64,000 bases of DNA. Source: Patescibacteria group bacterium (lineage in GTDB: Bacteria; Patescibacteriota; Kazan-3B-28; UBA10110). A program made the translations under genes and the position numbers. The DNA is taken from positions 128,593 to 192,592 of the forward strand of contig JBAZXK010000002.1 of assembly GCA_041659905.1 (NCBI GenBank), given 5' to 3'. The notes beneath the pieces are model-generated. The model was not told the DNA's origin and did not search any database. It worked only from the letters and a program-made list of their open reading frames with translations. Positions 14,851 through 59,471 of the stretch are shown in pieces; position 1 is the first letter of the stretch; every line of letters starts with the position of its first letter.

Positions 14851-17064
14851 ATGGCAAAACCCCGAAAAAAGAAAAAACAGTACCGCTACCGTTCCTATCA
14901 GACCTCTAAATGGGTAGATGGACTGAATTTAGATTTGGAATTAGAGCCGCATATCTTACGCGAGATTGTGGCAGTATTGTTGATAGGGTTGGGAGTGTTT
15001 ACTTTACTGGCAATCTTAGGAGCAGCAGGCGGTGTCGGCAGTGTCTTCTTTACGGCTTTGCGGATAGGATTGGGTTGGACTAGTTTTATCTTGCCGGTAG
15101 TATTAGTCGGTGCTGGCCTAGCTTTGTTTTATCCAGTGAAATATAAATTTACCACTACAAATACTGTGGGCTTGATTATGTTAGTCGTGGCTCTGTCGGC
15201 TTTACTGCATTTGTTTGTTGTCCCAGAAAACAGTGTGGGCGTAGCCCAAAGTGGAGCCGGCGGGGGTTATATTGGACTCGGCATTGCCGCAGGGTTAATT
15301 AAACTGGTCGATTTCTGGGCAGCCTTGTTGATTGTCGGTATGGCACTAGCCATTGCTTTATTGTTTGTGTTTGGCCAACCTCTGCGCGAGCTTTATTATC
15401 GAGCCAAACTGAATGTGCCTGCTCTCCCCCATTCACCCAAATTGATTATTCATAATGCGGGAGCGAAGGGTGGCCGAGCGCAAAAAGAAGAAGATACCGA
15501 CACTAAAGAAAATCAGGAACAAATTAAAACAGATGAACCCGAATTAGAGGTAGCTAAGACCTTTGTGCGTAAGAAGGTATCCGAGCAAGAGCCAGATTTT
15601 GTGCCCCAACTCACTACTGCCGGCGATTTTAAGTTGCCCCCGCTCGATTTATTGAGCGACACGGTAACTAAAGTCGATAGCGGCAATATTCGCCAAAATG
15701 TCGGTATTATCCAAGAAGCTTTGGAAGATTTCGGTATTCAAGTGGAGATGTCAGAAGTAAATGTCGGCCCGACAGTCACGCAATACACCTTGAAACCGGC
15801 GGCGGGAGTTAAATTATCTAAGATCAGTAATTTATCTAATGATTTATCGCTCGCTTTGGCGGCCCATCCTATCAGAATTGAAGCACCTATTCCAGGGCGG
15901 TCGTTGGTCGGGATTGAAGTACCCAATAAGAAATCTTCGATGGTGCGCCTGCGCGAACTAATCGAATCTGATGCCTTCAAAGCGATCCGCTCCCCTTTGC
16001 GGATGCCCTTGGGACGCGATGTAGCGGGGACGCCGGTAGCCGCCGATTTAGTGCGGATGCCGCATTTACTGATTGCGGGAGCCACCGGTATGGGTAAAAG
16101 CGTTTTTCTTAATTCATTATTAGTAAGTTTGATTTATCAGAATTCTCCGGCGGATTTGAGATTGGTCCTGGTCGATCCGAAGCGGGTAGAGTTTACGGCC
16201 TACAACGATGTCCCGCACTTACTGGCGCCGGTGATTGTCGATCCCTACAAAACCATTAGTGCTTTAAAGTGGTTAGTGATGGAGATGGAGCGCCGCTATA
16301 AAGTTTTTGCCGATCATAAAGTGCGCTTTATCGAAGCGTTTAACCGGGAATATCCGGATGCCAAAATGCCTTACATTGTTTTAGCTATTGATGAGTTAGC
16401 TGATTTGATGGCAGTGTCGGCCCGCGAGGTCGAAGCTTACATTTGTCGTTTAGCGCAAATGTCTCGGGCAGTAGGCATCCACTTAGTCTTAGCCACCCAA
16501 AGACCTTCCGTGGATGTCATTACCGGGCTGATTAAAGCCAATTTCCCCTCCCGGCTAGCTTTTGCAGTTACCTCCGGCACCGATTCTCGCACTATTTTAG
16601 ATACGGTCGGAGCGGACAAATTGCTGGGTAATGGAGATATGCTCTTCCAACCTTCTGATGCCAGCAAGCCGCGCCGGATTCAAGGAGTGTTTGTAAGCGA
16701 TAAAGAGGTTAAAGCCGTGACCGATTTTGTGAAACAGCAAGACAATCCCCAATACATTAGCGAATTGATCGCTGAAACCAAAGAATCCAAGCAATCCGAG
16801 ATTGAATCCGAAGGCGATCCCTTATTAAATGAAGCTGTTGAATTGGTGGTGCGGACTGGCAAGGCCTCAGCCTCGTATTTGCAAAGAAGATTTCGGATTG
16901 GTTATGCGCGGGCGGCCCGCCTCCTAGATTTATTAGAAATGAAAGGAATTGTCGGTCCGGGCGAAGGGGCCAAACCGCGCGAGATTTTAATGTCGCGCAC
17001 CGAATTGGTGGGGCAAGCCGCCAGCCCGACTGAGGCGGAATATAAAGAGGGCGAAGACTATTAA
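14851..17064 (+). CDS. ftsK: DNA translocase FtsK/SpoIIIE
   Basis: N-terminal TM segments, linker, motor domain with Walker A GATGMGKS and C-terminal gamma (winged-helix) domain. Confidence 0.9.
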   Translation: MAKPRKKKKQYRYRSYQTSKWVDGLNLDLELEPHILREIVAVLLIGLGVFTLLAILGAAGGVGSVFFTALRIGLGWTSFILPVVLVGAGLALFYPVKYKFTTTNTVGLIMLVVALSALLHLFVVPENSVGVAQSGAGGGYIGLGIAAGLIKLVDFWAALLIVGMALAIALLFVFGQPLRELYYRAKLNVPALPHSPKLIIHNAGAKGGRAQKEEDTDTKENQEQIKTDEPELEVAKTFVRKKVSEQEPDFVPQLTTAGDFKLPPLDLLSDTVTKVDSGNIRQNVGIIQEALEDFGIQVEMSEVNVGPTVTQYTLKPAAGVKLSKISNLSNDLSLALAAHPIRIEAPIPGRSLVGIEVPNKKSSMVRLRELIESDAFKAIRSPLRMPLGRDVAGTPVAADLVRMPHLLIAGATGMGKSVFLNSLLVSLIYQNSPADLRLVLVDPKRVEFTAYNDVPHLLAPVIVDPYKTISALKWLVMEMERRYKVFADHKVRFIEAFNREYPDAKMPYIVLAIDELADLMAVSAREVEAYICRLAQMSRAVGIHLVLATQRPSVDVITGLIKANFPSRLAFAVTSGTDSRTILDTVGADKLLGNGDMLFQPSDASKPRRIQGVFVSDKEVKAVTDFVKQQDNPQYISELIAETKESKQSEIESEGDPLLNEAVELVVRTGKASASYLQRRFRIGYARAARLLDLLEMKGIVGPGEGAKPREILMSRTELVGQAASPTEAEYKEGEDY

Positions 17065-17161
17065 ATAATATGTCATCCTCGGGCTTGACCCGAGGATCCA
17101 GGCCTAGACTCGGCGAGGCTGGCAGGCCTGGATTCCCGATCGAGTCGGGAATGACAAAGAA
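17065..17161. repeat. GC-rich palindromic REP-like element; left arm of an inverted-repeat pair (partner 20297-20380)
   Basis: Nested hairpins gtcatcctcgggcttgacccgaggatgac and gattcccgatcgagtcgggaatc. The reverse complement of 20297-20407 is identical to 17038-17161 apart from a 24 nt indel. Confidence 0.8.
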
Positions 17162-17169
17162 TAAACAGT

Positions 17170-17664
17170 ATGGCTACAGAATCTTCTTTCGATATCGTGT
17201 CCGAAATTGATCAGCAAGAGCTCGCCAACGCTTTAGATCAAACCCGCCGTGAAATTGCCGGGCGCTATGATTTTAAAGATGCTCCTGTCGAGATTAAAGA
17301 GGAGAAAGATCAATTAGTCATTTTAGCGCCAACCGAGTTTAAATTTAATGCGGCGCTGGATATTATTAAATCAAAACTGATCCGGCGGCAACTGGATTTG
17401 CGGATTTTGGGAGAGAATAAGATCGAACCGGCCAGCGGCGGTGCCGTGCGCGTAACCATTCCCCTGGTCGCTGGCATATCGGCGGATCGGGCTAAGTTAA
17501 TCAATAAAATAATTCGAGATCAGTTGCCAAAAGTAAAGGCCACTATCCAAGGGGATACCATCAGGGTCAGTTCCAAAAGCCGCGACGACTTACAGGCAGT
17601 GATGGCTCTATTTAAAGACAAGCCGGAAGTTACTATCCCCCTCCAGTTTACTAATTATCGTTAA
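17170..17664 (+). CDS. yajQ: YajQ-family (UPF0234) nucleotide-binding protein
   Basis: 164 aa, MATESSFDIVSEIDQQELANALDQTRREIAGRYDFKD matches the YajQ N-terminus. Confidence 0.8.
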   Translation: MATESSFDIVSEIDQQELANALDQTRREIAGRYDFKDAPVEIKEEKDQLVILAPTEFKFNAALDIIKSKLIRRQLDLRILGENKIEPASGGAVRVTIPLVAGISADRAKLINKIIRDQLPKVKATIQGDTIRVSSKSRDDLQAVMALFKDKPEVTIPLQFTNYR

Positions 17665-20073: not shown

Positions 20074-20292
20074 TTAAAACAATAACGAGAGGGTGGTGGG
20101 AAGATCGGTGTAATTAATTACCACGGCGCTGGCGGCAAGTAATACTAGTAAAATTATCAAAACCCAAAACAGCCAATGCGCGCCATCTTCAATTTCATCA
20201 GGCAGAACAATAATATAATTGGTTTTTTTGGGAACCAATTTTTTTAGCTTCTGGACTTTCGATGATTTTTTGTCTGATTTAATTTCTGTCAT
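20074..20292 (-). CDS. Small hypothetical membrane protein
   Basis: 72 aa with one strong TM helix (HWLFWVLIILLVLLAASAVVINY). Confidence 0.4.
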   Translation of the reverse strand: MTEIKSDKKSSKVQKLKKLVPKKTNYIIVLPDEIEDGAHWLFWVLIILLVLLAASAVVINYTDLPTTLSLLF

Positions 20293-20296
20293 ATTG

Positions 20297-20380
20297 TTTC
20301 TTCTTTGTCATTCCCGACTCGATCGGGAATCCAGGCCTGGATCCTCGGGTCAAGCCCGAGGATGACATATTATTTAATAG
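20297..20380. repeat. Right arm of the inverted-repeat pair (inverted copy of 17065-17161); 20381-20407 additionally copies the last 27 nt of ftsK
   Basis: Reverse complement matches 17038-17161 except for the 24 nt indel. Confidence 0.8.
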
Positions 20381-20413
20381 TCTTCGCCCTCTTTATATTC
20401 TGTCTCAGTCAGG

Positions 20414-21127
20414 CTAGCGGCTTGTCTTGCCGAATTGAGCGGGCTTGCCTCGCTGCGAAGCAGCGGGTAAGATCATTATAACAAACTCGCCTTTAGGAAG
20501 TTTGCTGGCGAAGTAGTTAATTAGTTCGTTAGTCTCCCCTATTTTGACTTCTTCAAACTTTTTAGTGAGTTCGCGAAAAGCCAGAATCTTTCTTTGGCCT
20601 AAAAATTTTTCAATATCTCTCAAGGTGCGGCCTACCCGCATCGGTGATTCATAAATTAAAATGGGCAAATCCCAGCCGCTGATCTTTTTGAAGAGAGTTT
20701 CCCGGCCTTTCTTTTTCGGGAGGAATCCCAGGAAGATAAAATTATCAGCCGATTCCCCAGCGATGCTGAGGGCAGCGGTCAGGGCAGAAGGGCCAGGGAG
20801 AGCCATGACTTCAGCACCGGCAGCGCGAGCGGCCCCTACGAGCCTCCCGGCCGGGTCTTGGATACCGGGAGTACCCGCATCAGTGATCAAGGCAATGTTT
20901 TTGCCTTCCACTAGCTGCTCCACCAGGTAATCCAGTTTATTATCTCGGCTGTGTTGGTGATATGAAATCAGCGGAGTTCCAATATTATAGTGGTTTAGTA
21001 ATTTTTTACTAGTGCGCGTATCTTCGGCTGCGATCAAGTCAACTGTCCGCAAGGTTTCTAAAGCCCGCAGAGTAATATCTCCCAGGTTCCCGATCGGTGT
21101 GGCGACCACATAAATTTTTCCCATCAT
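20414..21127 (-). CDS. rsmI: 16S rRNA (cytidine1402-2'-O)-methyltransferase
   Basis: MMGKIYVVATPIGNLGDITLRALETLRTVDLIAAEDTRTSKKLL, tetrapyrrole-methylase fold typical of RsmI. Confidence 0.85.
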   Translation of the reverse strand: MMGKIYVVATPIGNLGDITLRALETLRTVDLIAAEDTRTSKKLLNHYNIGTPLISYHQHSRDNKLDYLVEQLVEGKNIALITDAGTPGIQDPAGRLVGAARAAGAEVMALPGPSALTAALSIAGESADNFIFLGFLPKKKGRETLFKKISGWDLPILIYESPMRVGRTLRDIEKFLGQRKILAFRELTKKFEEVKIGETNELINYFASKLPKGEFVIMILPAASQRGKPAQFGKTSR

Positions 21128-25633: not shown

Positions 25634-25658
25634 AACAAAAAACCCACCTCTCGGTGGG
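25634..25658 (-). terminator. Rho-independent terminator of the minus-strand hypothetical operon
   Basis: cccacc-tctc-ggtggg hairpin followed on the minus strand by a T6 run. Confidence 0.6.
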
Positions 25659-25670
25659 CTGATATTTTCC

Positions 25671-26333
25671 CTAGCGACCTAGAGAGTTGCGAACAAATTT
25701 CTGTGCAAGTTTCTCCCCTTCTCGCACGAGATTTTGCACAGTTTCTGATCTGAAGCTGCAATTTGGCCAATTCATAGGATCAGCACTATCCAAACCTCCT
25801 TCTTTGGCAGCCGCTTCTATCAGGGAGTTGACTGTATCAACAAGCTGTTGTCCGGTCTGAGCATCAGCAAAGGGAAGATTTCCCATTATCTTTCGAGCGG
25901 TCGATGCGTACCAATACAATCGGGCAATAGTCGCGGACGAGATAGTTGTTGGATTACCGACCATGTCCCTTTCCTGCCAAGAACTTCCTACCTTTTTTAC
26001 ATCAATCACTCCAGCGATTTCTTTCATAATCTGAGCGAAAGGTTCGAAGTCTGATTCCTCAGTCAATGCGAAACGTCTAACCAATGCTGTCGAATAATCT
26101 GTGAATGTTCCACTTTCGGCAAAGCAACCAGACATATATAAGTTGCCCTTCAGTTTGCCTTGGACAGCTTCATTGATTTTTTCATTATCCATAAGAACAG
26201 AGAAATGTTCCATTTCGACGATTACGTCATACTTTGCGAGCTCCTCTTTCTTTTCTGTTGGTATGACTGATGGTTCTACGACGTTTTGTTTCTTTCCCTT
26301 AAACTTCTCGATCAATCTCAGGAAGATATTCAT
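25671..26333 (-). CDS. Hypothetical protein (no recognisable domain)
   Basis: 220 aa ORF, last gene of a three-gene minus-strand operon divergent from TrmB-like regulator 1. Confidence 0.5.
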   Translation of the reverse strand: MNIFLRLIEKFKGKKQNVVEPSVIPTEKKEELAKYDVIVEMEHFSVLMDNEKINEAVQGKLKGNLYMSGCFAESGTFTDYSTALVRRFALTEESDFEPFAQIMKEIAGVIDVKKVGSSWQERDMVGNPTTISSATIARLYWYASTARKIMGNLPFADAQTGQQLVDTVNSLIEAAAKEGGLDSADPMNWPNCSFRSETVQNLVREGEKLAQKFVRNSLGR

Positions 26334-26360: not shown

Positions 26361-26663
26361 TTAGCCCGCCACTTTCGTGGCGGGTTCCAGAGACCATTTA
26401 ACACAACGCCGACGGTCATTTTTATTAGTCAGAATTGTGAATGCTTTTCTTTGCTGCAATAGGGTCGTTGCAAAAGGTTCGATGACATCAGTTTTTATAA
26501 TGATTGGATCTGGCCACTCAATGTCTCCAACAGTTTCATCGCAGCGCTCCCCTGTAATAACAAGCTCACCAAAACTGATCTGGAACTTTTCATTCTTCTT
26601 AACGAAACAATTTCCGCCACTAATGAGCTTGACCAATTCGTCAAAGGTATTTACGTGTCGCAT
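26361..26663 (-). CDS. Hypothetical protein
   Basis: The listed ORF 26361..26765 overlaps the upstream gene by >100 nt; the internal Met (MRHVNTFDEL...) gives a ~100 aa product overlapping by only 13 nt. Confidence 0.4.
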   Translation of the reverse strand: MRHVNTFDELVKLISGGNCFVKKNEKFQISFGELVITGERCDETVGDIEWPDPIIIKTDVIEPFATTLLQQRKAFTILTNKNDRRRCVKWSLEPATKVAG

Positions 26664-27208
26664 TGTGTCGCCTCCTTGGCCTTGGATGGGGTAACAAGAT
26701 AGACAATGTATTTTGTGGCATCGTAGCCGACGGTGTAGAAGAGGAAGATCCAGAACACTCGCCAATCACCGCTGAATCCGCTATATATCACAGCTGGAAC
26801 TGGATAGTACAACATACCTTCATACAGGTTTCTGACAAACCTATTTGGCGCTTTGCCTCGCCATCGATCTTTGATTGAGCCGAACAGAACAAATACCAGG
26901 TAGAATGTCAGAAGCAAACCAATTTCTGGCTTAGCGACTGCTAAGAAAGTGATTATGATCATGGTTGTGGCGATTTGGTGATTTAGGTAGTCTAGTCTGC
27001 CTCTCACCAAGAACGCTAGGTTCATGGCCAACATAATGTTGGCTGTAGCTGGCCCTCCTAGCATAACTAATGCGGCTCCCATAATTCCCCAGACAATGCC
27101 GAACAGAATATCGGCTCCGGAGAACCAATAGAAACCATGTTCGTTATGGAGATCAGCAATTTTCATACTGATTCCATAGCCGATGGCAATCAGCAATAAT
27201 AGCCCCAT
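26651..27208 (-). CDS. Hypothetical polytopic membrane protein
   Basis: 185 aa with 5-6 predicted TM helices. Confidence 0.55.
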   Translation of the reverse strand: MGLLLLIAIGYGISMKIADLHNEHGFYWFSGADILFGIVWGIMGAALVMLGGPATANIMLAMNLAFLVRGRLDYLNHQIATTMIIITFLAVAKPEIGLLLTFYLVFVLFGSIKDRWRGKAPNRFVRNLYEGMLYYPVPAVIYSGFSGDWRVFWIFLFYTVGYDATKYIVYLVTPSKAKEATQCDT

Positions 27209-27410
27209 GGTTATTCTCCTTATTTTTTCGTTTTTCTGTTTTCAAGATTGCAATTTTCTGCTTCCAGACTACATTATTTGTAGATTTGTGTCAATAAGTT
27301 CGGACAATTAGAAAACTGTTTTACGGTCATTTATAATCTGATATTGCTATATAAAACCAGATATGCTATAATATTTGTTGGTACGAATGAACAAAATTTA
27401 AGATTTTGAA

Positions 27411-28184
27411 ATGGCTAAGACAATCGAAAGATTATTAGGAGAAATCGGGCTGAGCGCCAAGGAACAGGCGGTTTACCGAGCAGTAGTTGAACTGGGTGAT
27501 GCGCCAGTGTCCCCGATCGCCAAAAGAGCTCGCATTAATCGAGCAACAGCTTATAGTATTTTGGATCATTTGATCGGAAAAGGATTAGTTGCTAAATCCG
27601 AGCAGAAGAAAAAACTGCATTATTCGGCTAAGGGTACCGGTGAACTTGAAGAATATCTGATGTCCCAAAAGGCTAACTGGGATGGCATCATCCATACCTT
27701 TCATCATTTAAAACCTGAACTGGAAGCATTGTTAGGCAGCGCGGGAGTAAAGCCGACGGTAAGATTCTTTGAAGGGAAGTTAGGAGTAAAAGAAGTTTTT
27801 TTTGATCAGATTCGCGGTGATCATAAAGAAATCTTAGCCTATGGTTCGGCGGGCAAATTAGAGGAACTAATGGGGAGTGATTATTTAAAGATGTTTACTA
27901 AACAAAAATCTAAAACCAATATCGTTACCAGAGCGATTTTGCCGGACGAACCCATTTCGCGAGAATATGTCAAAAAATATTATCCTGAAAAAGGCAAACA
28001 GCTATTCGATATTAAAGTTGTGTCTCCCGATGAATTCCCGATGGAGATGGAAATGAACATTTATGGTAATAAAGTTTCCATGATCTCGCTTAACCCTGCC
28101 GAGCCGGTTGCGGTTATTATCGAAAGCCCTGCTCTAGTTCGCAATCAACGTATCATCTTTAATCTTCTTTGGAAGCGATTATAA
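27411..28184 (+). CDS. TrmB-family HTH transcriptional regulator (paralog 1)
   Basis: N-terminal winged HTH (LSAKEQAVYRAVVELGDAPVSPIAKRARINRATAYSILDHLIGKGLV) plus C-terminal TrmB-like domain; ~60% identical to 30348..31121. Confidence 0.7.
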   Translation: MAKTIERLLGEIGLSAKEQAVYRAVVELGDAPVSPIAKRARINRATAYSILDHLIGKGLVAKSEQKKKLHYSAKGTGELEEYLMSQKANWDGIIHTFHHLKPELEALLGSAGVKPTVRFFEGKLGVKEVFFDQIRGDHKEILAYGSAGKLEELMGSDYLKMFTKQKSKTNIVTRAILPDEPISREYVKKYYPEKGKQLFDIKVVSPDEFPMEMEMNIYGNKVSMISLNPAEPVAVIIESPALVRNQRIIFNLLWKRL

Positions 28185-28289
28185 TAGCCAAACTTTTTAG
28201 CAAGTTAAAACCCCTGTCAGAGATCTGGCAGGGGTTTTAGTTCTTAAAGATGAAAGAACTTTCCTAGATTGTTTTATACCATCAAAGCT

Positions 28290-28634
28290 CTATAGAAACC
28301 TTACAAACTTATTATTTTTATCAACTAATACATTCTTAGCTTTGATTAATTTATTAGTCAATTCAAAACCCATAATAATAATTTCATCGCCAGTTTTTAT
28401 CAGAAGGGCGGCTGCTCCATTCATGCAAATAGTACCCGAACCTTTTGCTCCAACAATTACATAAGTTTCTAGTCGCGCACCGTTGGTGTTGTCTACAACG
28501 AGAACTTTTTCGCCTGGCCAAAAACCGGCTTTAATGATCAAATCCTTGTCTATAGTAATACTGCCAATATAGTTTATATTGGCTTCTGTTACAGTTGCTT
28601 TATGAATTTTTGATCTCATTAAATATCTCATCAT
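28290..28634 (-). CDS. panD: Aspartate 1-decarboxylase (pyruvoyl-dependent)
   Basis: [29 protein letters not shown]... aligns with PanD, including the Gly-Ser self-cleavage site (YIGSITID). Confidence 0.8.
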
Positions 28635-28707
28635 TTTTTCTAATAAAAACTAAATAAGAGTATTAAGAAAGTAGAGGAGACTCCCTAAGAAGTCTCCATT
28701 TAATCAA

Positions 28708-30153
28708 TCATTTGGGCCATTCTCTATTGGAGAACCAGAGTTCTCCTCGATCTCCATTGATGTGCCGTATAGCCGAGAAGAATAAGTCGCTCACCTCTTG
28801 AAAGGTGAAATTTCTTGAGTTCAACTGAGGGATGTTTATGGAATACCTACTCCAGTTTTGCCATCCCCCATGTAGTTCAATACCGCTTTCCGGCCTGATG
28901 CGGTATTCTCCCCCGCCTATTGATTCCATTATTTCGTGGAACCTTCTTGTCCCTGGGAGCAACGAAAAGCAATAAACCACATGGAAATCTGAGAGTCCCT
29001 CATCTCGTAAGTTCTTTGCGAACTTAATTTGATTCTCCATTCCCAGGATGGTTTGCTCAGGAAAACCCATAATATGAGAGGTGTACACCCAGAGTCCTCT
29101 CTTTTTAGCTGCCCCCAGGATGCTTCTATAGTGAGACATCAGCTGCTCGGGAATTTGGTCGGTTGTCTTTCCTCGCAGATTAATTGGGATAAACAATGTC
29201 CGGCAGTTAGTATCTGCCATGTAGTCGATAAGTTCGGGTGTCAGGTTCTCTAACTCAAGTCCACCATTGTTCTCCCAAGACAGACCATGCTTTTTAAACA
29301 GCCGCATTACTTTTATTGCCCAGTCCCCTCCTCGGGAAAAGTTGTCGTCCTGAACAATGACATGGCTGTAACCATTTTCTCTCAACAGCCTAAGGTGATT
29401 TGAAATCCAGGAAAGGCTGTGTTTCCTAAATTTTTGTCCCCACATCCAAGGAGTGCAACAAAATCCGCATTTATTTGGACATCCTCTACTCAAGATAACA
29501 TCCAAATATTTTTCTCCGTGTGCAGACCCTGCGTAAGTTGGGCTTGGAGTAAGAGGGATCTGCTGAATCAGTTCAAGATCCAAAGACCCCAAGCAGTCCA
29601 AATCTTCTACAAGATCTTCTGGCGGATTAATGCAAAATTTGTTGTTTCTATCCAGATAGGCCACGCTTCCTGACTGCTGGATTATAGAAGGGTTGTCCAG
29701 GTTTGCAACGATATTCCCCATTACAACCTCTCCTTCACCAGTTACTACATAATCAATCAGGCTATCCCTTAAGGTTTTCTCAGGAAGCGCTGAAGCATGA
29801 GCTCCACCACAAACCAGAGGTATATTGGGGAAATACTGCTTCAATAGTTTTGCAGTTGTGAGAAATCCCGTGTACCCCACAGTGGCCAGTAAGGTTATGC
29901 CAATGACATCTGGCTTGAAATCAGATATCCTTTGGGTAATTTCCTTGTCTGGCAATCCATACTCCAACGTTTCCGAGGTAGTCTTTCGGAGGGTGCCCCA
30001 GCCCTCTAGGGCTGAATCAATTACTTGGACTTCGTGATGCCCTAAGTTTTTTAAAGCTGATCCGAGGTACCAAGTCCCCAGATTCAGCGCAGACTTTTTC
30101 AGATCTGCTCTGTTAGTGATCAATGGGGGGATTACCAGAATTACTCGTTTCAT
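28708..30153 (-). CDS. B12-binding domain / radical SAM domain protein
   Basis: N-terminal cobalamin-binding Rossmann-like region (VCGGAHASALPE...VTGEGEVVMGNIV) and canonical CxxxCxxC (RGCPNKCGFCCTP). Confidence 0.8.
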   Translation of the reverse strand: MKRVILVIPPLITNRADLKKSALNLGTWYLGSALKNLGHHEVQVIDSALEGWGTLRKTTSETLEYGLPDKEITQRISDFKPDVIGITLLATVGYTGFLTTAKLLKQYFPNIPLVCGGAHASALPEKTLRDSLIDYVVTGEGEVVMGNIVANLDNPSIIQQSGSVAYLDRNNKFCINPPEDLVEDLDCLGSLDLELIQQIPLTPSPTYAGSAHGEKYLDVILSRGCPNKCGFCCTPWMWGQKFRKHSLSWISNHLRLLRENGYSHVIVQDDNFSRGGDWAIKVMRLFKKHGLSWENNGGLELENLTPELIDYMADTNCRTLFIPINLRGKTTDQIPEQLMSHYRSILGAAKKRGLWVYTSHIMGFPEQTILGMENQIKFAKNLRDEGLSDFHVVYCFSLLPGTRRFHEIMESIGGGEYRIRPESGIELHGGWQNWSRYSINIPQLNSRNFTFQEVSDLFFSAIRHINGDRGELWFSNREWPK

Positions 30154-30347
30154 GGTTACTCTCCTTTTTCAAGCTACATTGATTTTGCGCTCTGATGGCT
30201 CAATACTATGATAAACTAATAAATTTGTCAATTATCATCCACAGTATAAATAAATAAAATAGCTGGATTATATCAGTATTTACAAAAGTAATCAGATATG
30301 TTAATATATTTGTGGGTGCAGTTCCACAAAATATAACTTTTTTTAAG

Positions 30348-31121
30348 ATGGCTAAAACTGTTGAACAATTACTCCAGGAGATCGGGTTGGGCCAGAAAGA
30401 GCAGGCAGTTTATTCGGCGGTGGTGAGTTTGGGCAATGCGGCGGTTTCCCCTATCGCCCAGAAGGCCCAGATCAATCGCTCGACCGCTTACGATATCCTA
30501 GAATCCTTAACCCACAAGGGTTTAGTGTCGCGTTCGGAAGAGAAGAAGAAGATTCACTATTTTGCCACTGGGATTAACGAACTAGAAGAATATATTCTGG
30601 CACAGGAAACCAATTGGCGGACCGTGTCAGATAGCTTTAAGGGGCTTAAGACAGAACTCTCGGCTTTACTGAATAGTTCGGGCACTAAACCGGTGATGCG
30701 ATTCTTTGAAGGCAAAGCCGGAATCAAAGAGGTATGGTTTGACCAAATTCGGGGGGATCATAAAGAAATCCTCTGTTATAGTTCGGCCAGTAAAGTCGAA
30801 CAGGCTTTGGGCGAACAGTATTTAAAAGTTTATGCTAAGCAAAAGATTCGCAGTAAGATTAAAACAAAACTAATTGTCCCTGGTGAAAAAGCGTTGAAGG
30901 ATTATTTCTCCAAGTACTACCAGCATTCCACTAAAGATCTGTTTGCCATCAAAACCGTGCCACCGGATAAGTTCCCTTTCGAGGTGGATATAAACATCTA
31001 TGGCAATAAAATCTCGATGATTTCTTTGAGCAAGCACGAATTAACCGCTGTAATCATTGAGAGTCCTGTTTTAGCCCGCAACCAACGCATGATTTTCGAC
31101 CTCCTGTGGAGTTTACTCTAG
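30348..31121 (+). CDS. TrmB-family HTH transcriptional regulator (paralog 2)
   Basis: MAKTVEQLLQEIGLGQKEQAVYSAVVSLGNAAVSPIAQKAQINRSTAYDILESL...; paralogous to 27411..28184, including a conserved ~25 nt upstream motif (cagatatgYtaWaatatWtttgtKggt at 27360-27386 and 30292-30318). The listed ORF starts 36 nt earlier at 30312. Confidence 0.7.
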   Translation: MAKTVEQLLQEIGLGQKEQAVYSAVVSLGNAAVSPIAQKAQINRSTAYDILESLTHKGLVSRSEEKKKIHYFATGINELEEYILAQETNWRTVSDSFKGLKTELSALLNSSGTKPVMRFFEGKAGIKEVWFDQIRGDHKEILCYSSASKVEQALGEQYLKVYAKQKIRSKIKTKLIVPGEKALKDYFSKYYQHSTKDLFAIKTVPPDKFPFEVDINIYGNKISMISLSKHELTAVIIESPVLARNQRMIFDLLWSLL

Positions 31122-31165
31122 CTTATTGCCCAATTTGGTATACTGGGTCTATAACCAGTTTTTCT

Positions 31166-31909
31166 ATGTCTGGACACTCAAAATGGGCTACAATCAAACG
31201 GAAGAAAGGCGCGCTAGACCAGAAGCGCGGGGCTTTGTTTACCAAATTGGTGAAAATCGTGGAAGTGGCGGCCAGAGGCGGGGCGGACCCGGCGATGAAT
31301 TTTAAATTGAAATTGGCGGTGCAAAAAGCTAAATCGGCCAATGTCCCTCTGGCTACGATTGAGAAGTCCATCAAAAAAGGGAGCGGACAAGACAAAGAAG
31401 CGAGCCGTCTAGAAGAAGCAACTTACGAAGGATTAGCTCCCGGAAATGTGGCGGTAGTTATTCAAGCCCTAACTGACAATAAAAATCGGACTGTGGCGGA
31501 TTTGCGCAATATTTTTACTAAGGCTGGCGGGAATTTTGGCTCCCCGGTGTCTTGGCAGTTTGACCATCGCGGAGTGTTGGAAATCAGCAAATCAGGCAAT
31601 GTTGAGGAGCTCGAGTTAGCTGTGATTGATGCGGGGGCATTGGATTTTTCAGATGCGGGAGATGTGGTGGAGGTATATACCGAGCCGAAAGCATTGGACC
31701 AAGTGAAAAACAAGTTGGAGTCCGCCGGATTTAAAATAACTTCCAGTGCTTTGGGGCTGGTGCCGAAAAATAAAACTGTAATTACTGACTCAAATATGGC
31801 TCGCCGGGTGTTGAATTTTTTGGATGCCTTGGATGATTATGATGATGTAACGGAAGTGGCCAGCACTCTGGATGTTCCGGATGAGATTATGGCAAAACTC
31901 GAAGATTAA
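31166..31909 (+). CDS. yebC: YebC/PmpR-family transcriptional regulatory protein
   Basis: MSGHSKWATIKRKKGALDQKRGALFTKL... canonical YebC start; the listed ORF begins 60 nt upstream at a non-homologous Met. Confidence 0.85.
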   Translation: MSGHSKWATIKRKKGALDQKRGALFTKLVKIVEVAARGGADPAMNFKLKLAVQKAKSANVPLATIEKSIKKGSGQDKEASRLEEATYEGLAPGNVAVVIQALTDNKNRTVADLRNIFTKAGGNFGSPVSWQFDHRGVLEISKSGNVEELELAVIDAGALDFSDAGDVVEVYTEPKALDQVKNKLESAGFKITSSALGLVPKNKTVITDSNMARRVLNFLDALDDYDDVTEVASTLDVPDEIMAKLED

Positions 31910-31934
31910 TTCCCCTCCTGCCGGAGGAGGGGTT

Positions 31935-32018
31935 GGGGGAGGTGGGAGTATATTCCCCGAGCGGAGTCGAGCCTGCCTGCCGGTAGGCAGGGGGCTACCT
32001 TTGATTTTGTAAAATCAA
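31935..32018. repeat. 83-84 nt GC-rich palindromic repeat, copy 1 (second copy 57869-57951)
   Basis: ggggaggtgggagtatattccccgagcggagtcgagcctgcctgccggtaggcagggggctacctttgatttt gtaaaatcaat is identical in both copies apart from a 1 nt indel; it contains the palindromes gcctgcctgccggtaggcagg and ttgattttgtaaaatcaa. Confidence 0.85.
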
Positions 32019-32034
32019 TAAAACTTTTTTCTTA

Positions 32035-32282
32035 TTACCTTTCTAGAAAGGTAACACCAAAGTCCCGGGCAGTCGCCCTCGCTCTGCAGTAAATCATAAA
32101 ATCGCCTTCCTGCTCTCGCCCTAACAGACAACGGGCTACGCAACAGCGATTTTCTGTCTGCAGTACGCTCGGGCTCCAATGCCCGGTTGACGGAGAAAGA
32201 CAAAGAAATATAGTGATTTTGCTATTTGCTATCTGAATTTGCTCAATGGGGTTGAAAGACAAAGTCGTCCTCCTCCAATGGC
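32035..32282 (+). ncRNA. Candidate structured RNA / cis-regulatory element, copy 1 of 3 (unclassified family)
   Basis: Alignable with 35824-36000 and 57964-58185. It has a 5-prime hairpin (ttacctttc-taga-gaaaggtaa here; ttactttcc-cga-ggaaagtaa in the others, with compensatory CC/GG vs CT/AG changes), a conserved aaagtcYYSGGCAGTCG box, a covarying internal hairpin, and conserved ctcgRRctccaatgSCYgg plus cctcctccaaKGSc boxes. ORFs on either strand over it are not conserved between copies. Confidence 0.45.
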
Positions 32283-33279: not shown

Positions 33280-33870
33280 ATGGAAACAATGAACAAGATT
33301 ATTTTAGGATTGGATCCGGGGACGGCGACAACTGGGTTTGGGGTAGTTAAAGATACTAAAGGCCAAGTTGAATATGTGGATTGCGGGTGTATCATTACTA
33401 CACTCAAAAGTATATCCCCAGCCCGCAAAGCTACGCTTAGCGTTGCTGGCGAGCCTGCCCGCAATGCTCCCGTCACAACTTCGCAGATGTTGGCGGGTGC
33501 TGGCGGGCCTGCCGAACGACTGCTGACCATTCAGAAATCTCTGGAAATTTTAATTAAAAAATATCAGCCGGATATTTTAGCAGTAGAGAAATTGTTTTTT
33601 ACCAAGAATATTACTACCGCCATTTCAGTAGCAGAAGCCCGCGGGGTAATTTTGGTCACAGCCGCCAAACATAACTTGGAAATTGCGGAATATACTCCTT
33701 TGCAAGTGAAACAGACCCTGACCGGATATGGTAAAGCCGATAAGCAACAGATACAGCGGATGGTTAAATCTATCCTGAAGCTTCAAAGCATCCCGAAGCC
33801 GGATGATGCCGCCGACGCCTTAGCGATAGCGATTTGTGCGGTGCACCACACAGTTAAAGTTGGATGTTAG
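33280..33870 (+). CDS. ruvC: Crossover junction endodeoxyribonuclease RuvC (with ~32 aa in-frame insertion)
   Basis: ILGLDPGTATTGFGVV N-terminus, C-terminal DDAADALAIAICA motif; a GC-rich A/G/P-rich insertion at nt ~33408-33505 relative to canonical RuvC. Confidence 0.85.
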   Translation: METMNKIILGLDPGTATTGFGVVKDTKGQVEYVDCGCIITTLKSISPARKATLSVAGEPARNAPVTTSQMLAGAGGPAERLLTIQKSLEILIKKYQPDILAVEKLFFTKNITTAISVAEARGVILVTAAKHNLEIAEYTPLQVKQTLTGYGKADKQQIQRMVKSILKLQSIPKPDDAADALAIAICAVHHTVKVGC

Positions 33871-35823: not shown

Positions 35824-36000
35824 GTTACTTTCCCGAGGAAAGTAACCAAAGTCTTCGGGCAGTCGTCCTCACTCGGTATTTAACCAAAAATCTACCTTTC
35901 CGCTCTCGTCGGTGTAACCGACTTTGCAGCGGTAATTTTTGGAATACCTATCGCTCGGACTCCAATGCCCGGATGGGAACAAAAGCCCTCCTCCAATGCC
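35824..36000 (+). ncRNA. Candidate structured RNA / cis-regulatory element, copy 2 of 3
   Basis: ~80% identical to copy 3 over ~175 nt with paired substitutions in helices (gtcggt-gtaa-accgac vs gccggt-atat-accggc; ggta...tacc stems conserved). Loop 1 (aaccaaaaatc) is complementary to loop 2 (atttttgg). Confidence 0.45.
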
Positions 36001-36631: not shown

Positions 36632-38422
36632 TTGATAACAAGGAATCTATTTCCAAGGAGGAACATCCTGATGCGGATATTCATGGCTATCCTGTTGATT
36701 CTGTCTTTTTTTCAGATCAACTATATTTACACTGGTCAGCCGACAGAAAGAATCAGTCAGCATTCTGAATATGTACCATCGCGGCATGTATTCATAGACA
36801 AGATATGTCAGCTGGATCATTGGATTTGGGAGAGTCCAGGCTTGACTCCGGCGCAATTTGCCGATCTAGCCAAGGAAATCCCTGAACGAAAAGCGTTGAT
36901 TATTCGAATCAAACCGCTTTGTTATCGGCTTGAAGAGCAGGATCAGAGATTAGTTATGATTGCGACTAGTATGATCCGACAAAGGAAGGTTAAACCTTTT
37001 TTTGTTCACTGCTCACCCTCTGGCGATTACGATCCCCGATTTGACACGGTAATGATGCCCAATGGTACCATAGCTGTATTGAATGGGATCGCCCGAGGCC
37101 TTGGTTATGATTCATCGGCCATCGATGAGTCTTATCCGGGACCGAATCTGCAAGGACGAGAACGTGATTTCGTTCTCAACTATCTTAGAAGCGAGATTGA
37201 GAAATCTTGGTCTTCAGGACTTGAACCAGTTGTTTATTGTACGCTCCTGTCTTATAACTCTGAATCGTCATTGGGGTTATTAAAAACTCTCAAAAATGAG
37301 TTCGGGGAAAAAATCAAAACAGGAGTTGGCGGACAATTAGTCCGGGTCATTCCTGAAACTTATCGCAACCTAACATATATCGATCAAGTTGGCGTGGGTG
37401 ATGCAGAAGTTATTCTGCAACCGATGTTGGCTGGTCAAAACTATGCTGAAGGTTGGCTTGATTCTGGTCTAAACTTCTACGCAGAACCTAACTACCATGG
37501 GTATTTAGGTTTGAACAATAGACTGAATGAAAGCTCTCGGTATGCGTTTGGACCATTCACTGGTATACGAAACTTATGCATCGAAAGCGTCAGGGGATGT
37601 TCATGGGCATACTTGACTGGAAAGCCATGCGAAATGTGTGCCCTCCAAGGAGTTTCCAGTCAGCCAGTCTTTAAGCCATTCCAGAACCATTTTGATCTAG
37701 AGAATCAGCTTGCTAGAGAATTTGGGATTAACTGGTTGTTCGATGTGAGTAATCAATTTATTCCAGTTACTGGTAAAAATCAGGCTGATTGGCTGCGAGG
37801 CTATTTGATTGCCAAAAATCAGTATAGCGAGGTTGACATCAATAAGTATGTTTATCTCACTGCAGCATCATTCAGCTCAGAAACCGCTCCTCTTCTACGG
37901 GAAGCAGGGATCAGGATTGCTTACGTGGGGTTTGATGGTTGGGAACGTGGAACGCGGACAGCGTTGCATAAACCAAATATTAATCCCATGAAGGTGCTGC
38001 AACTCTGCCGAGAGAACGATATCTATGTTCGCACATCATTTGTCATTGGAGCCGGTCTGACTGATTCCAATCTAAATAAGCTTCCTAAGCTTGTTGACAA
38101 TATGATGGCGGGTTATGGAGATGTTGTTCTTTCCTGCGGGAGTTTTTTGCAGATCATCATTCCCGGCTCTCCGGCCTGGGCGTTTCTACAGAAAGAAGCT
38201 CTAGAACAAGAATGGGGAGATGTTAACGACATCTATCATTTCTTTATCACAAACGGATTTTTAACTTGGGAGCAAGAAGAGCAACTGACTAAAGCGTATA
38301 TCCAGAGAGTACAAAATCTGGATTATGACAAAGTAGTGGCAGTCAGAAATTACGTCAAAGCGCTAGTAGATTCTGAAACCATCGCCATCACTATCCGTGA
38401 TGGTGGCACATTGTTAAGTTAA
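36632..38422 (+). CDS. B12-binding-domain protein with divergent radical-SAM-like core (non-canonical Cys motif)
   Basis: 596 aa; a GEGE-type cobalamin-binding-like segment (VGVGDAEVILQPMLAG), a Cys cluster CSWAYLTGKPCEMC (Cx9CxxC rather than CxxxCxxC), and a FVIGAGLTD-like segment. Confidence 0.45.
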   Translation: MITRNLFPRRNILMRIFMAILLILSFFQINYIYTGQPTERISQHSEYVPSRHVFIDKICQLDHWIWESPGLTPAQFADLAKEIPERKALIIRIKPLCYRLEEQDQRLVMIATSMIRQRKVKPFFVHCSPSGDYDPRFDTVMMPNGTIAVLNGIARGLGYDSSAIDESYPGPNLQGRERDFVLNYLRSEIEKSWSSGLEPVVYCTLLSYNSESSLGLLKTLKNEFGEKIKTGVGGQLVRVIPETYRNLTYIDQVGVGDAEVILQPMLAGQNYAEGWLDSGLNFYAEPNYHGYLGLNNRLNESSRYAFGPFTGIRNLCIESVRGCSWAYLTGKPCEMCALQGVSSQPVFKPFQNHFDLENQLAREFGINWLFDVSNQFIPVTGKNQADWLRGYLIAKNQYSEVDINKYVYLTAASFSSETAPLLREAGIRIAYVGFDGWERGTRTALHKPNINPMKVLQLCRENDIYVRTSFVIGAGLTDSNLNKLPKLVDNMMAGYGDVVLSCGSFLQIIIPGSPAWAFLQKEALEQEWGDVNDIYHFFITNGFLTWEQEEQLTKAYIQRVQNLDYDKVVAVRNYVKALVDSETIAITIRDGGTLLS

Positions 38423-57963: not shown

Positions 57964-58185
57964 GTTACTTTCCCGAGGAAAGTAACCAAAGTCTTCTCGC
58001 AGTCGCTCTGGCTTGGTATTTAGCTAAAAATTACCTGGCTGTTCTCGCCGGTATATACCGGCTCCACGCACTGGTAATTTTTGGAATACCTAACACTCGA
58101 GCTCCAATGGCTGGAATGTAAAATCAAGACATCCCTCCTCCAAGGGCCGGTTAGATGAAAAGACGCTCAAACTCCAATGGCCACG
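57964..58185 (+). ncRNA. Candidate structured RNA / cis-regulatory element, copy 3 of 3
   Basis: 5-prime hairpin gttactttcc-cga-ggaaagtaac identical to copy 2; conserved boxes as in copies 1-2; fused downstream of the 83 nt repeat exactly as in copy 1. Confidence 0.45.
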
Positions 58186-58337
58186 AAATACAACGGTCGT
58201 TGTATTTCGTGGCCTAGTATACCATCCGTCATTCTGGGGAGCTCATGGGGCGACTCCAGAATCTTTCCTGGTTTTTTTATTGGTTTTAGATGTAGAATAT
58301 AAATATTCATTATATTTATTAACAAATAGGTATTATC

Positions 58338-59471
58338 ATGGGGAAGAAACTAAAGAAAATAAAAACAAACAAGTCCTTGAAGTCTCTCTTCAGCAACAAG
58401 CCACTCCTCTTTATAGTGGCTATTGTGGTATTGGTTGTAATCTTCTCCAATTCAAGCGTAAGAGCTTTTCTTAGAATGCCTAGTCAGGCAGCCGAAATTA
58501 CTCCAGGTACCTCACCATCTACATCAACTTCCTGCATATTCTATGCATCTTCTTTAGGCAACGATCAGAATAATGGCAGTGCTCCCCAAGATCAATACGC
58601 AGTCAGAACTATTAAAAAAGCAATTCAGTTGTCGAAGGCTAATTGTCCAGTCTCGGCGACAATTAAGCTTGTCGGCAGTCAGTATAATGTTTCAGATCTT
58701 GATATAAATACAGCAAATCCAATTACAGTTAATGGAGAGACAAAAAACATCACTATCACTTCGAGTGGCGCTAATAAAACTGAGGTTAAGTATGTTAGTC
58801 CAAATAATGATGATAGTACGGTAACATTTTCTAATGAGGTTAATTTTAATCCGAATGGCACGATCACTATTACAAACATCATATTTAATAATGTTGGGAT
58901 TCGTACTTTAACACGCTCGTATAGTACATATGTCACAGGGAATATTCTTACAAATCAGACTAACCATGATCCAAATGACCAGGCACGATTAGTGGTGGGA
59001 TCTTTCCTTAATGCTGATGCGGGTATTATCAAAATATATAACAATAAGTTTATGTTTGATGAGACTACCTCAGGAAATATAAACGAGGGCGTTATTATAG
59101 ATAATCTATCATATGCCACCCTGTTGGATGTATCTAATAATACCTTTAATTACTTCTCATATCCAAACCAATATAGTGATTCTAATACTGAAGAAACTAA
59201 ATTTATAGGTATCAGATTACATCAAAACAACAGTCAGGCATCAATCGCAAATAATAATTTTGTGACCCAAGGAGTATCTGTTGTAGGAAAAAGCATCATA
59301 TCTGCCAATATCCACAATTTTGGCCTAGTTTCGGATAGGTCTGTTATCAAGACAACAATAGAAAAAAACAATTTCTCAAAGTTCAATGGGATTGATGTTA
59401 GCGTTATTTCTCCACCTGTACAAGGGAGCGAATCCCAGAACATACTCATTCATAATAATATAGGTATATAA
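58338..59471 (+). CDS. Secreted/anchored protein with parallel beta-helix-like repeats (hypothetical)
   Basis: N-terminal signal/TM (LLFIVAIVVLVVIFSNSSVRA); N/T/I-rich repetitive body suggestive of a right-handed beta-helix (pectate-lyase-like) fold. Confidence 0.55.
   Translation: MGKKLKKIKTNKSLKSLFSNKPLLFIVAIVVLVVIFSNSSVRAFLRMPSQAAEITPGTSPSTSTSCIFYASSLGNDQNNGSAPQDQYAVRTIKKAIQLSKANCPVSATIKLVGSQYNVSDLDINTANPITVNGETKNITITSSGANKTEVKYVSPNNDDSTVTFSNEVNFNPNGTITITNIIFNNVGIRTLTRSYSTYVTGNILTNQTNHDPNDQARLVVGSFLNADAGIIKIYNNKFMFDETTSGNINEGVIIDNLSYATLLDVSNNTFNYFSYPNQYSDSNTEETKFIGIRLHQNNSQASIANNNFVTQGVSVVGKSIISANIHNFGLVSDRSVIKTTIEKNNFSKFNGIDVSVISPPVQGSESQNILIHNNIGI

Follow-up and report, generated by a model that had tools for sequence, protein, structure and literature searches.

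Why does a Patescibacterium carry a gene for aspartate 1-decarboxylase (panD) in one operon with a gene for a cobalamin-binding radical S-adenosylmethionine (rSAM) enzyme, and what would the two enzymes make? The question is raised by a 64-kb stretch of the genome of a Patescibacteria group bacterium (64,000 nt of contig JBAZXK010000002.1, hereafter the window), in which two genes for TrmB-like regulators each face a minus-strand operon. TrmB1 is divergent from a membrane-protein operon (27208 to 25671) and TrmB2 from the rSAM-panD operon (30153 to 28290), and these coordinates bear out the divergent layout given for both regulators in a preliminary description of this DNA. The same description placed panD before the rSAM gene; the order is the reverse, with the rSAM gene first (30153 to 28708) and panD second (28631 to 28290) on the minus strand. 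We put the probability at about 55% that the pair was acquired laterally and is under local regulation, as a module that forms beta-alanine and then modifies this compound or something derived from it.

We compared the neighbourhoods of the rSAM gene across lineages, and found that panD adjoins it in seven of the nine lineages examined (those of P0002, P0005, P0010, P0014, P0016 and L029, and the window). Both gene orders occur: the rSAM gene comes first in the window and in three archaeal lineages, and the order is reversed in two lineages. The reading frames of the pair overlap by 4-29 nt in four archaeal lineages. Since the same pairing has been assembled repeatedly, it points to a functional link and not to chance, and the neighbourhood check proposed in the preliminary description thus found a recurring association. 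We found nothing relevant in the literature on PanD with a cobalamin rSAM enzyme in DPANN archaea or candidate phyla radiation (CPR) organisms.

The archaeal loci share a further gene. In every archaeal locus for which we had upstream sequence, a divergent gene for a tandem Lrp/AsnC protein of ~330 aa lies across ~100 nt, and the distant rSAM relatives without panD (L031-L033) also face such a protein. Because the Lrp/AsnC gene is always divergent, we treated it as a regulator. A role as siroheme-decarboxylase partner (AhbA/B, NirDL) was rejected, as the AhbA/B models scored 24-40 bits against 125-140, and the HTH_24/AsnC-type helix-turn-helix models 58-81 bits. In the window, a TrmBL2-type protein stands at the position held by Lrp/AsnC in archaea, which is consistent with an exchange of regulators once the genes had entered a bacterium. 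A separate observation concerns contig L031 (6919-9500 and 11910-12944), which carries a sigma-70-type factor and has the tandem Lrp/AsnC gene opposite a 34%-identical rSAM relative, without panD. This contig is probably bacterial and may be a second cross-domain occurrence of the Lrp/AsnC-rSAM core pair.

The window PanD has the features of a canonical enzyme. It scores 138 bits against PF02261 and 124.7 bits against TIGR00223, whose equivalog cut-off is 106. We aligned it with E. coli PanD, six rSAM-linked PanDs and four close-clade PanDs (two of them stand-alone by context), and found that K9, H11, Y22, G24, S25, R54, T57, Y58 and N72 are invariant relative to the E. coli protein. The intact Gly-Ser pyruvoyl site that had been described is therefore present as Gly24-Ser25, in a protein above the equivalog cut-off. 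The gene differs in composition from its surroundings: its GC content is 33.6% (44.3% for the window), and its third-position GC is 28% (47% for the rSAM gene). It belongs to a clade of at least 120 clusters of 113-aa proteins that are 76-83% identical and come from Patescibacteria, Woesearchaeota and Elusimicrobia. Genes of this clade have 33-36% GC even in genomes of ~43% GC (window 28290-28631; L072 7001-7342; L075 7001-7342), which suggests repeated lateral spread of the clade.

The preliminary description singled out a stand-alone panD beside the rSAM gene; in the wider clade, a stand-alone panD is not unusual. Two of the three close-clade panD contexts sampled (L072, L075, L029) are without any rSAM gene, and those two genomes also have no pan genes nearby. 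With at least 120 clusters and two sampled genomes that have panD alone, a stand-alone panD is common in these lineages, so the rare feature is the rSAM partnership. In contrast, the claim that the setting is not that of classical pantothenate/CoA synthesis was upheld. No match to E. coli PanB, PanC, CoaBC, CoaD or CoaE was found in the 64-kb window by tblastn at E <0.01, and Pfam annotation of most window open reading frames (ORFs) of at least 110 aa found no pan, coa (panE included) or cobalamin genes. A conventional panD beside pan/coa genes was thus rejected for these 64 kb, and panB, panC and coaBC, any of which nearby would have spoken for such a gene, are absent from them.

The rSAM partner belongs to class B, the enzymes with a B12-binding domain. 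We found a B12-binding domain (PF02310, 71.3 bits, residues 21-147) and a Radical_SAM domain (40.5 bits) in Pfam searches, and the three cysteines of the C225-x3-C229-x2-C232 motif are invariant in 16 sequences. This agrees with the earlier account of a cobalamin-binding rSAM enzyme with a canonical CxxxCxxC. An AlphaFold2 (AF2) model with a pLDDT (predicted local distance difference test) score of 87 matched the folds of CysS (5.5e-18), MgmA (1.6e-17), TsrM (3.5e-17), TokK (2e-15) and OxsB (4e-15) in the PDB, and also that of AprD4, with query-normalised TM-scores of 0.56-0.65 and identities of 13-19%. The best NCBIfam model, NF038361, reached 110.9 bits against a cut-off of 575, and all 22 matches were far under their cut-offs. 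Membership in a characterised subfamily (PhpK/Sden_1168, ApyD, BchE, HpnJ/HpnR, KedN5, BzaD, MgmA and others) was therefore rejected, and the comparison with curated subfamily models suggested in the preliminary description left the enzyme unclaimed by any well-characterised family. Locus L001 has a second rSAM gene, which encodes a generic class-B enzyme; as it was seen in that lineage only, we set it aside as a part of the module.

The rSAM family is rare and centred on DPANN archaea. A word-indexed search of 5.8 billion proteins returned ~15 close homologs (44-60% identity) and one at 34%, and an exhaustive profile search of 1.84 billion representatives returned ~13 full-length clusters. 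Past these clusters lies a plateau of generic B12-rSAM proteins that align to profile positions ~2-410 only. The C-terminal ~70 residues (YSINTPQIGS ... WF.GREWPK) are family-specific and absent from the generic relatives. A close homolog occurs in 3 of 185,579 species genomes, labelled as Woesearchaeota, Iainarchaeum and an archaeal bin. Family members are almost all archaeal, and the window rSAM enzyme falls among proteins of archaeal contexts in a distance tree. An exchange of genes between DPANN archaea and CPR (Patescibacteria) bacteria is on record (PMC12455944). Judged from the distribution of the family and the tree, the rSAM-panD cargo most likely reached the window bacterium by cross-domain transfer from DPANN archaea.

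To place this cargo, we compared the locus with related genomes. Their flanking order is KsgA - DPBB protein - PcrA - minus-strand cargo, then the divergent TrmB - YebC - RuvC ... RuvA - YceG - ComEC, with one TrmB gene and differing cargo. The slot holds an unknown 168-aa protein in L068, a KamA-family 2,3-aminomutase with the protein unk109 in L069, L070 and L071, and the genes memb185, unk100 and unk220 in the window. The C-terminal ~100 aa of unk220 resemble L069 unk109, which is encoded beside PcrA (31% identity over 98 aa, E ~1e-7), and this resemblance marks the memb185 cassette as the resident one. With blastn, L069 6923-7762 aligned to window 27335-28174 and L069 8238-9197 to window 31136-32073, with 81% nucleotide identity across the TrmB1 promoter and gene, and only an ORF for a 100-aa membrane protein lies between the two L069 blocks. 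Since the alignment stops at 28174 and restarts at 31136, the DNA at 28175-31135 is a ~3-kb insert between TrmB1 and yebC. As TrmB2 carries the same promoter architecture as TrmB1, the donor of the insert was likely another Patescibacterium that already had rSAM-panD in its cargo slot. Two observations on the sister genomes are added here. The aminomutase (L069 5568-6776, also in L070 and L071) scored 185.7 bits against a cut-off of 199.2, with the Glu, Lys and Arg aminomutase models about equal, and is another enzyme producing beta-amino acids. The pcrA gene of the L069-type sister genome contains an intein, and the window pcrA does not.

The two regulators are related as had been reported: 155 of 257 residues are identical (60%) without gaps (E 2e-117), and both exceed the cut-off of 25.6 bits for Pfam TrmB PF01978, TrmB1 with 44.9 and TrmB2 with 55.0 bits over residues ~9-73. 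An AF2 model (pLDDT 84) has an N-terminal winged helix, a long helix (76-108) and a C-terminal alpha/beta domain (116-257), for which no Pfam model matched. In Foldseek searches the model matched TrmBL2 over its full length with E 1e-12, and no other regulator matched as well. The sugar-binding subdomain of TrmB and TrmBL1 (proteins of ~340 aa) is absent from these 257-aa proteins, and the alignments of the NCBIfam TrmB and TrmBL1 models cover no more than residues ~3-70, with 17-26 bits against cut-offs of 500-650. Lacking the subdomain, the proteins are of the TrmBL2-like type. Their family is small and confined to Patescibacteria where the sources give names. The predicted recognition-helix residues N43, R44, T46 and Y48 are invariant across 18 family members, which fits one shared DNA target, so that each copy is probably able to act on both units.

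Although the two regulators had been described as a duplicated cassette, this term is misleading. TrmB1 is 89% identical to P0067 (the syntenic L069 gene), 88% to P0070 and 73% to P0072 (L068). TrmB2 has identities of just 52-63% with all members, takes a basal position in the family tree and came with the ~3-kb insert. A recent tandem duplication of the regulator was thus rejected by the tree, the identities and the synteny breakpoints.

We then aligned both window intergenic regions with the upstream regions of the TrmB orthologs in the Patescibacteria contigs L068 and L069, and found three islands that are invariant in the four loci. Island 1, TGTCAAT, is the minus-strand TTGACA, with a TAnnnT hexamer 17 nt on in all four loci, and is the predicted cargo promoter. 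The -10 box of the cargo operon 1 promoter is too weak for a promoter scan, so this site rests on its conserved position. Island 2 consists of a TATATTGC-type -35 box and the block CAGAT.TG.TA...TA..TGT.GGT, within which lies the TrmB promoter's -10 box, preceded by a TG. Island 3 is the leader ACAAAA..AA directly 5' of an ATGG start. The distance from the cargo -35 box to the TrmB block is 62-64 nt in all four loci (64 nt at TrmB1) and that from the block to the TrmB start codon 28-30 nt, and the cargo leader varies from 49 to 232 nt.

When up to two mismatches are allowed, the motif CAGATRTGYTANNNTANNTGTNGGT has just two matches in the 64-kb window, at 27358-27382 and 30293-30317, and 100 shuffles gave none. 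The ~25-nt motif reported for both upstream regions is therefore real, with two matches in the window, and it also lies upstream of the L068 and L069 orthologs; its '-10-like element' is present as well, and is more precisely the -10 box of the TrmB genes' own promoters. The similar leader of the two TrmB genes likewise stood, as ACAAAA..AA and the ATGG start are conserved, also in L068 and L069. No conserved dyad was found in the block by alignment or by an inverted-repeat scan, and the ACCA...TGGT arms occur in the TrmB1 copy only. A palindromic operator was accordingly rejected, and the conserved block is a candidate autoregulatory operator. No riboswitch or other known RNA was found near the operon at Rfam gathering scores, and in a scan of the whole window only six tRNAs reached the threshold. 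As a side observation, the TrmB genes are without a recognisable Shine-Dalgarno sequence and keep an A/T-rich leader (27383-27410 and 30318-30347), and the divergent cargo genes start after AAGGAGA, which suggests that regulators and cargo are translated by different modes.

Taken together, these data suggest the following model. In this lineage, a TrmBL2-type gene upstream of yebC-ruvC carries back-to-back promoters, one driving TrmB and the other driving the cargo up to pcrA. The window holds two such units in tandem, the resident TrmB1 with the membrane-protein operon, and TrmB2 with rSAM-panD inserted before yebC. An archaeal rSAM-panD pair has most likely been transferred across domains and then put under a bacterial-type regulator. 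The TrmB-like proteins would bind the block overlapping their own -10 box, and so autoregulate and co-regulate the divergent cargo promoter. The fixed double-promoter unit, the private regulator copy kept with the imported cargo and the terminator that makes TrmB1 monocistronic suggest that these proteins are dedicated local regulators of the adjacent cargo.

In the chemistry of this model, PanD would convert L-aspartate to beta-alanine, and the rSAM enzyme would then alter beta-alanine or a small derivative in a radical reaction that depends on cobalamin and SAM, C-methylation being most likely. The product would be a non-canonical beta-amino acid outside the classical pantothenate route. E. 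coli aspartate decarboxylase (ADC) has no activity on 3-methylaspartate (PMC6471175), and the window enzyme keeps all the E. coli PanD residues; it therefore most likely decarboxylates L-aspartate to beta-alanine. As a canonical PanD favours aspartate as the substrate, the rSAM enzyme is placed after it, and we infer that it modifies, probably C-methylates, a beta-alanine derivative. A small-molecule pathway is also favoured by the partners that replace PanD, which act on small polar molecules, and by the archaeal regulator, which belongs to the amino-acid-sensing Lrp/AsnC family. In place of panD, L007 has a methyltransferase resembling glycine/sarcosine N-methyltransferase, and in L010 an SsuA-family ABC transporter, a sulfonate-type uptake system, lies upstream of the rSAM gene; a third such partner is the D-2-hydroxyacid dehydrogenase encoded beside a distant relative. 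The beta-alanine-linked module put forward in the preliminary description is thus kept as a conserved (seven of nine lineages) and uncharacterised one (no curated rSAM subfamily), and loses its duplication, and its stand-alone panD is no longer a distinctive feature.

Several points weigh against this reading. The same two lineages, L007 and L010, have the rSAM gene without panD. In the window, panD and the rSAM gene are split by a terminator-like hairpin and differ in third-position GC (28% vs 47%) and in their nearest relatives. The closest relatives of the window PanD (78-83% identical) and those of the rSAM enzyme do not occur as pairs, and the PanD beside the 60%-identical rSAM enzyme is only 54% identical to the window PanD. 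These differences suggest that the pair was assembled, or panD replaced, in a separate step, and the window pair was probably assembled or repaired in two steps, and not transferred as one block. The similarity of the rSAM enzyme to solved class-B enzymes is generic (13-19% identity), and OxsB, BchE and AprD4 are class-B members that are not methylases. The search for pan and coa genes covered 64 kb of the genome, and such genes may lie elsewhere. We infer the predicted DNA binding and cargo control of the TrmB-like proteins from gene arrangement and sequence conservation only; the conserved block is without a conserved dyad and hence may serve as promoter alone. The closest solved structure is that of TrmBL2, which binds DNA generally, in a chromatin-like manner, and is not a specific regulator, and TrmB-yebC may simply be one housekeeping operon.

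Alternative chemistries were weighed against modification after decarboxylation. The rSAM enzyme could act earlier, C-methylating L-aspartate to 3-methylaspartate, which a CrpG-like PanD homolog would then decarboxylate to 3-amino-2-methylpropanoate. Class-B rSAM enzymes, as the structural neighbours illustrate, typically methylate unactivated sp3 carbons, the rSAM gene lies 5' of panD in the window and three archaeal lineages, and CrpG, a pyruvoyl enzyme of the PanD family, decarboxylates L-erythro-3-methylaspartate (PMC6471175). We nevertheless give this order of steps a slim chance, because the module-linked PanDs keep every canonical E. coli PanD residue, the window PanD is ~80% identical to stand-alone PanDs without a nearby rSAM gene, the E. 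coli enzyme is inactive on the methylated substrate (PMC6471175), and the gene order is reversed in two lineages. The pair might instead be a non-orthologous supply of pantothenate/CoA, in which the rSAM enzyme builds or tailors the pantoate/pantetheine part, for example the gem-dimethyl group or a pantetheinylated substrate. Pantothenate is the best-known fate of beta-alanine, CysS and TokK, which are among the best-matching structures, were crystallised with pantetheinylated substrates, and in L032, a distant family member (31% identity), the rSAM gene is followed by a D-2-hydroxyacid dehydrogenase gene, pantoate being a D-2-hydroxyacid. Here the structural likeness (13-15% identity) is of a kind common to class B, function cannot be transferred from an enzyme as distant as that of L032, and no gene for PanC, phosphopantothenate synthetase, PanB, PanE or CoaBC was found in the window or in the module flanks examined, so that a cofactor supply appears quite improbable. 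A macromolecule, protein or RNA, is a very unlikely substrate of the rSAM enzyme, with PanD linked indirectly or itself the target. MgmA and Mmp10 methylate methyl-coenzyme M reductase, MgmA is the second-best structural match with the highest sequence identity among the matches (19%), and the overlapping reading frames in archaeal loci suggest a tight stoichiometric coupling. But no conserved small precursor ORF or target gene lies beside the pair, each locus has different genes downstream, nothing sets the PanD sequence apart, and both the replacement partners (the L007 methyltransferase and the SsuA-family ABC transporter of L010) and the amino-acid-sensing family of the archaeal regulator point to small molecules. 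A peptide natural product of the RiPP style (ribosomally synthesised and post-translationally modified peptide) was rejected in the same way, as there is no conserved small ORF beside the pair.

A different doubt concerns the regulation and not the chemistry. The TrmB-like proteins could be general nucleoid or housekeeping DNA binders at the head of a trmB-yebC-ruvC operon, and the variable genes upstream the contents of a recombination-prone intergenic slot. The chromatin protein TrmBL2 is the closest structure, the TrmB-yebC adjacency is conserved with short gaps (34-50 nt), and a conserved dyad operator was not found. On the other hand, TrmB1 is monocistronic with a strong terminator 3' of it, a second TrmB copy was kept together with imported cargo, and the opposite-strand TTGACA is fixed 62-64 nt from the TrmB promoter in four loci despite differing cargo, as expected of one regulated unit. 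We regard the housekeeping explanation as unlikely and retain a locally regulated rSAM-PanD module as the preferred reading.

The features of the locus are collected in the table below. Its order is pcrA/uvrD (end 23430, minus strand), the memb185 operon, TrmB1, the terminator, the rSAM-panD operon, TrmB2, yebC, ruvC and ruvA, with 202 nt between memb185 and TrmB1 and 194 nt between the rSAM gene and TrmB2. It was recovered at 100% identity on two other assemblies, and is thus not an assembly artefact.

Features of the two regulator-cargo units (positions in the window)
Feature	Position	Strand	Evidence or remark
Terminator-like hairpin closing cargo operon 1	25641..25660	-	8-bp stem with 5 GC pairs, then TTTTGTTGTG; directly 3' of the unk220 stop codon
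unk220, gene 3 of cargo operon 1	25671..26333	-	without family match
unk100 (100 aa), gene 2 of cargo operon 1	26361..26663	-	without family; 13-nt overlap with the membrane-protein gene
memb185, gene 1 of cargo operon 1	26651..27208	-	hydrophobic, without family match
Predicted cargo operon 1 promoter	27266..27294	-	TTGACA, 17-nt spacer, TAGTCT; -35 box invariant in four aligned loci
Predicted TrmB1 promoter with conserved block CAGATATGCTATAATATTTGTTGGT	27344..27382	+	TTGCTA-17-TATAAT, upstream TG
TrmB1, TrmBL2-type winged-helix protein, resident ortholog	27411..28184	+	257 aa
Window-specific ~3-kb insert relative to sister genome L069	28175..31135	.	terminator, panD, rSAM gene, double promoter region, TrmB2
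Bidirectional intrinsic terminator, convergent TrmB1/panD	28206..28239	.	16-nt arms, 94% complementary, 2-nt loop, flanking A and T runs
panD, aspartate 1-decarboxylase proenzyme (113 aa by homology)	28290..28631	-	Pfam, TIGR00223, E. coli PanD alignment
Terminator-like hairpin in the 76-nt rSAM-panD spacer	28676..28697	-	9-bp stem, 5 GC pairs, weak T tail
Class-B (B12-binding domain) rSAM enzyme, rare DPANN-centred family	28708..30153	-	domain, profile, fold and tree evidence
Predicted rSAM-panD operon promoter	30203..30231	-	TTGACA, 17-nt spacer, TAGTAT; 10/12 consensus positions
Predicted TrmB2 promoter with conserved block CAGATATGTTAATATATTTGTGGGT	30279..30317	+	TTTACA-17-TAATAT, upstream TG
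TrmB2, deep-branching TrmBL2-type member	30348..31121	+	257 aa; yebC 44 nt downstream

No Pfam, NCBIfam or PDB sequence match was found for the proteins of cargo operon 1. A hydropathy scan of memb185 showed hydrophobic stretches at residues 2-20, 29-60 and 82-114 (at least three strong stretches), and it is probably a polytopic membrane protein. The operon thus remains the three-gene unit described earlier, with two proteins without a database match and a third with hydrophobic stretches, and the gene call corrected its middle gene from 134 aa to 100 aa (26361-26663).

Elsewhere in the window, Pfam annotation identified housekeeping genes for H+-pyrophosphatase, PNPase, RNase J, FtsK, RecA, AlaRS, MetRS, glutamate dehydrogenase and others. 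We also noted a conserved non-coding element of ~130 nt at 35841-35972 and 57981-58114 (plus strand), and at L068 9730-9860, with 80-86% identity. A long hairpin of 44 pairs, 7 of them with compensatory changes, is predicted for its consensus, and Rfam has no match to it; the element may represent a structured RNA or a repeat. A ~3.1-kb segment with recA, genes for a DUF520 and a YkuD-domain protein and a small ORF lies between inverted repeats at 17014-17172 and 20290-20424; these measure 98 nt (94% complementary) and 50 nt (96% complementary), and the left arm takes in the final ~50 nt of ftsK. Such an arrangement could stem from an inversion or mark an invertible segment. The ruvC gene (33280-33870) contains a 30-aa in-frame GC-rich insert with internal repeats (~33418-33507) that is absent from the 86-90% identical L068 and L069 orthologs, and looks like a small inserted element tolerated in frame. 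Three ORFs of 599, 596 and 377 aa (12914-14713, minus strand; 36632-38422 and 58338-59471, plus strand) are without a Pfam match, the 596-aa one as checked by precomputed annotation only. The intergenic blocks 32032-32083 and 58228-58265 are 90-92% identical to L068 13786-13837 and 14093-14130, far above the surrounding DNA.

Class-B rSAM enzymes catalyse some of biology's hardest alkylations, and substrates are known for a minority of their subfamilies. A rare subfamily with a fixed and well-understood partner, PanD, therefore offers a concrete first substrate, aspartate or beta-alanine. The module is found almost only in DPANN archaea and one lineage of Patescibacteria. As these hosts are thought to have almost no biosynthesis, a radical pathway that is retained and transferred points to a metabolite important for their lifestyle. 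A broader proposal, that rSAM and PanD with an amino-acid-type regulator form a self-contained two-enzyme pathway to a new beta-alanine-derived metabolite in ultra-small archaea and bacteria, is tentative, and we think it doubtful in this full form. If it is true, the rSAM enzyme would be without known precedent among class-B enzymes in acting on a free beta-amino acid, and the product might be, for example, a C-methylated beta-amino acid serving as compatible solute or building block, or part of a pantothenate-like cofactor made by a radical route. The module would also pass between DPANN archaea and Patescibacteria and come under a new local regulator on each occasion. The locus is also a clear example of foreign-gene uptake, with a conserved regulator and double-promoter unit, exchangeable cargo, and a bacterial TrmBL2-type regulator in place of the archaeal Lrp-type one. 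The class-B rSAM subfamily with a PanD partner and the TrmBL2-type regulator unit with exchangeable cargo are new, both within known kinds of systems.

Comparison with known systems places each part of the module. The window PanD shares with the PanD of the panBCD pathway its equivalog score, the Gly24-Ser25 self-cleavage site and residues K9, H11, Y22, R54, T57, Y58 and N72, and differs in having no panB, panC, panE or coa gene within 64 kb, in belonging to a low-GC clade of 113-aa proteins and in its rSAM partner. The class-B methylases CysS, TokK/ThnK, TsrM and MgmA share its N-terminal B12-binding Rossmann domain and, after this, the radical-SAM barrel with CxxxCxxC, whereas the window enzyme is 13-19% identical to them and has its own C-terminal ~70 residues. 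To our knowledge, no characterised class-B enzyme has a PanD partner. CrpG, the beta-methylaspartate alpha-decarboxylase of the cryptophycin pathway, is a PanD-family pyruvoyl decarboxylase that gives a C-methylated beta-alanine (PMC6471175), and the module would yield the same kind of end product if its rSAM enzyme is a C-methylase. In the CrpG pathway, compared here by description only, the methyl group comes by a different route and before decarboxylation, and the window PanD is canonical and not specialised. As for systems of the ablA/ablB type (lysine 2,3-aminomutase), a sister genome has a KamA-family rSAM enzyme in the same TrmB slot and the window cargo would also yield a beta-amino acid, but the link is thematic only, as the rSAM class is different and the acetyltransferase partner is lacking.

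On the regulatory side, the rSAM(-panD) unit of archaea faces an Lrp/AsnC-type protein as archaeal amino-acid operons do, the usual layout for amino-acid-responsive local regulators, although the regulator in the rSAM loci is a fused tandem of two HTH_24/AsnC units and the window has the unrelated TrmBL2-type protein instead. TrmBL2 of Thermococcales (PDB 5bpd, 5bqt, 5box) is of the same length class (~260 aa, against 257 aa), and shares the winged helix, one long helix and C-terminal alpha/beta domain of the AF2 model, without a sugar-binding subdomain. TrmBL2 is archaeal, whereas the window proteins are bacterial and 16-18% identical to it, with low TM-scores (~0.4) because the domains are oriented differently. 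Furthermore, the window proteins sit in a divergent-promoter unit of fixed layout whose cargo varies, which is suggestive of a local regulator rather than of a genome-wide chromatin protein.

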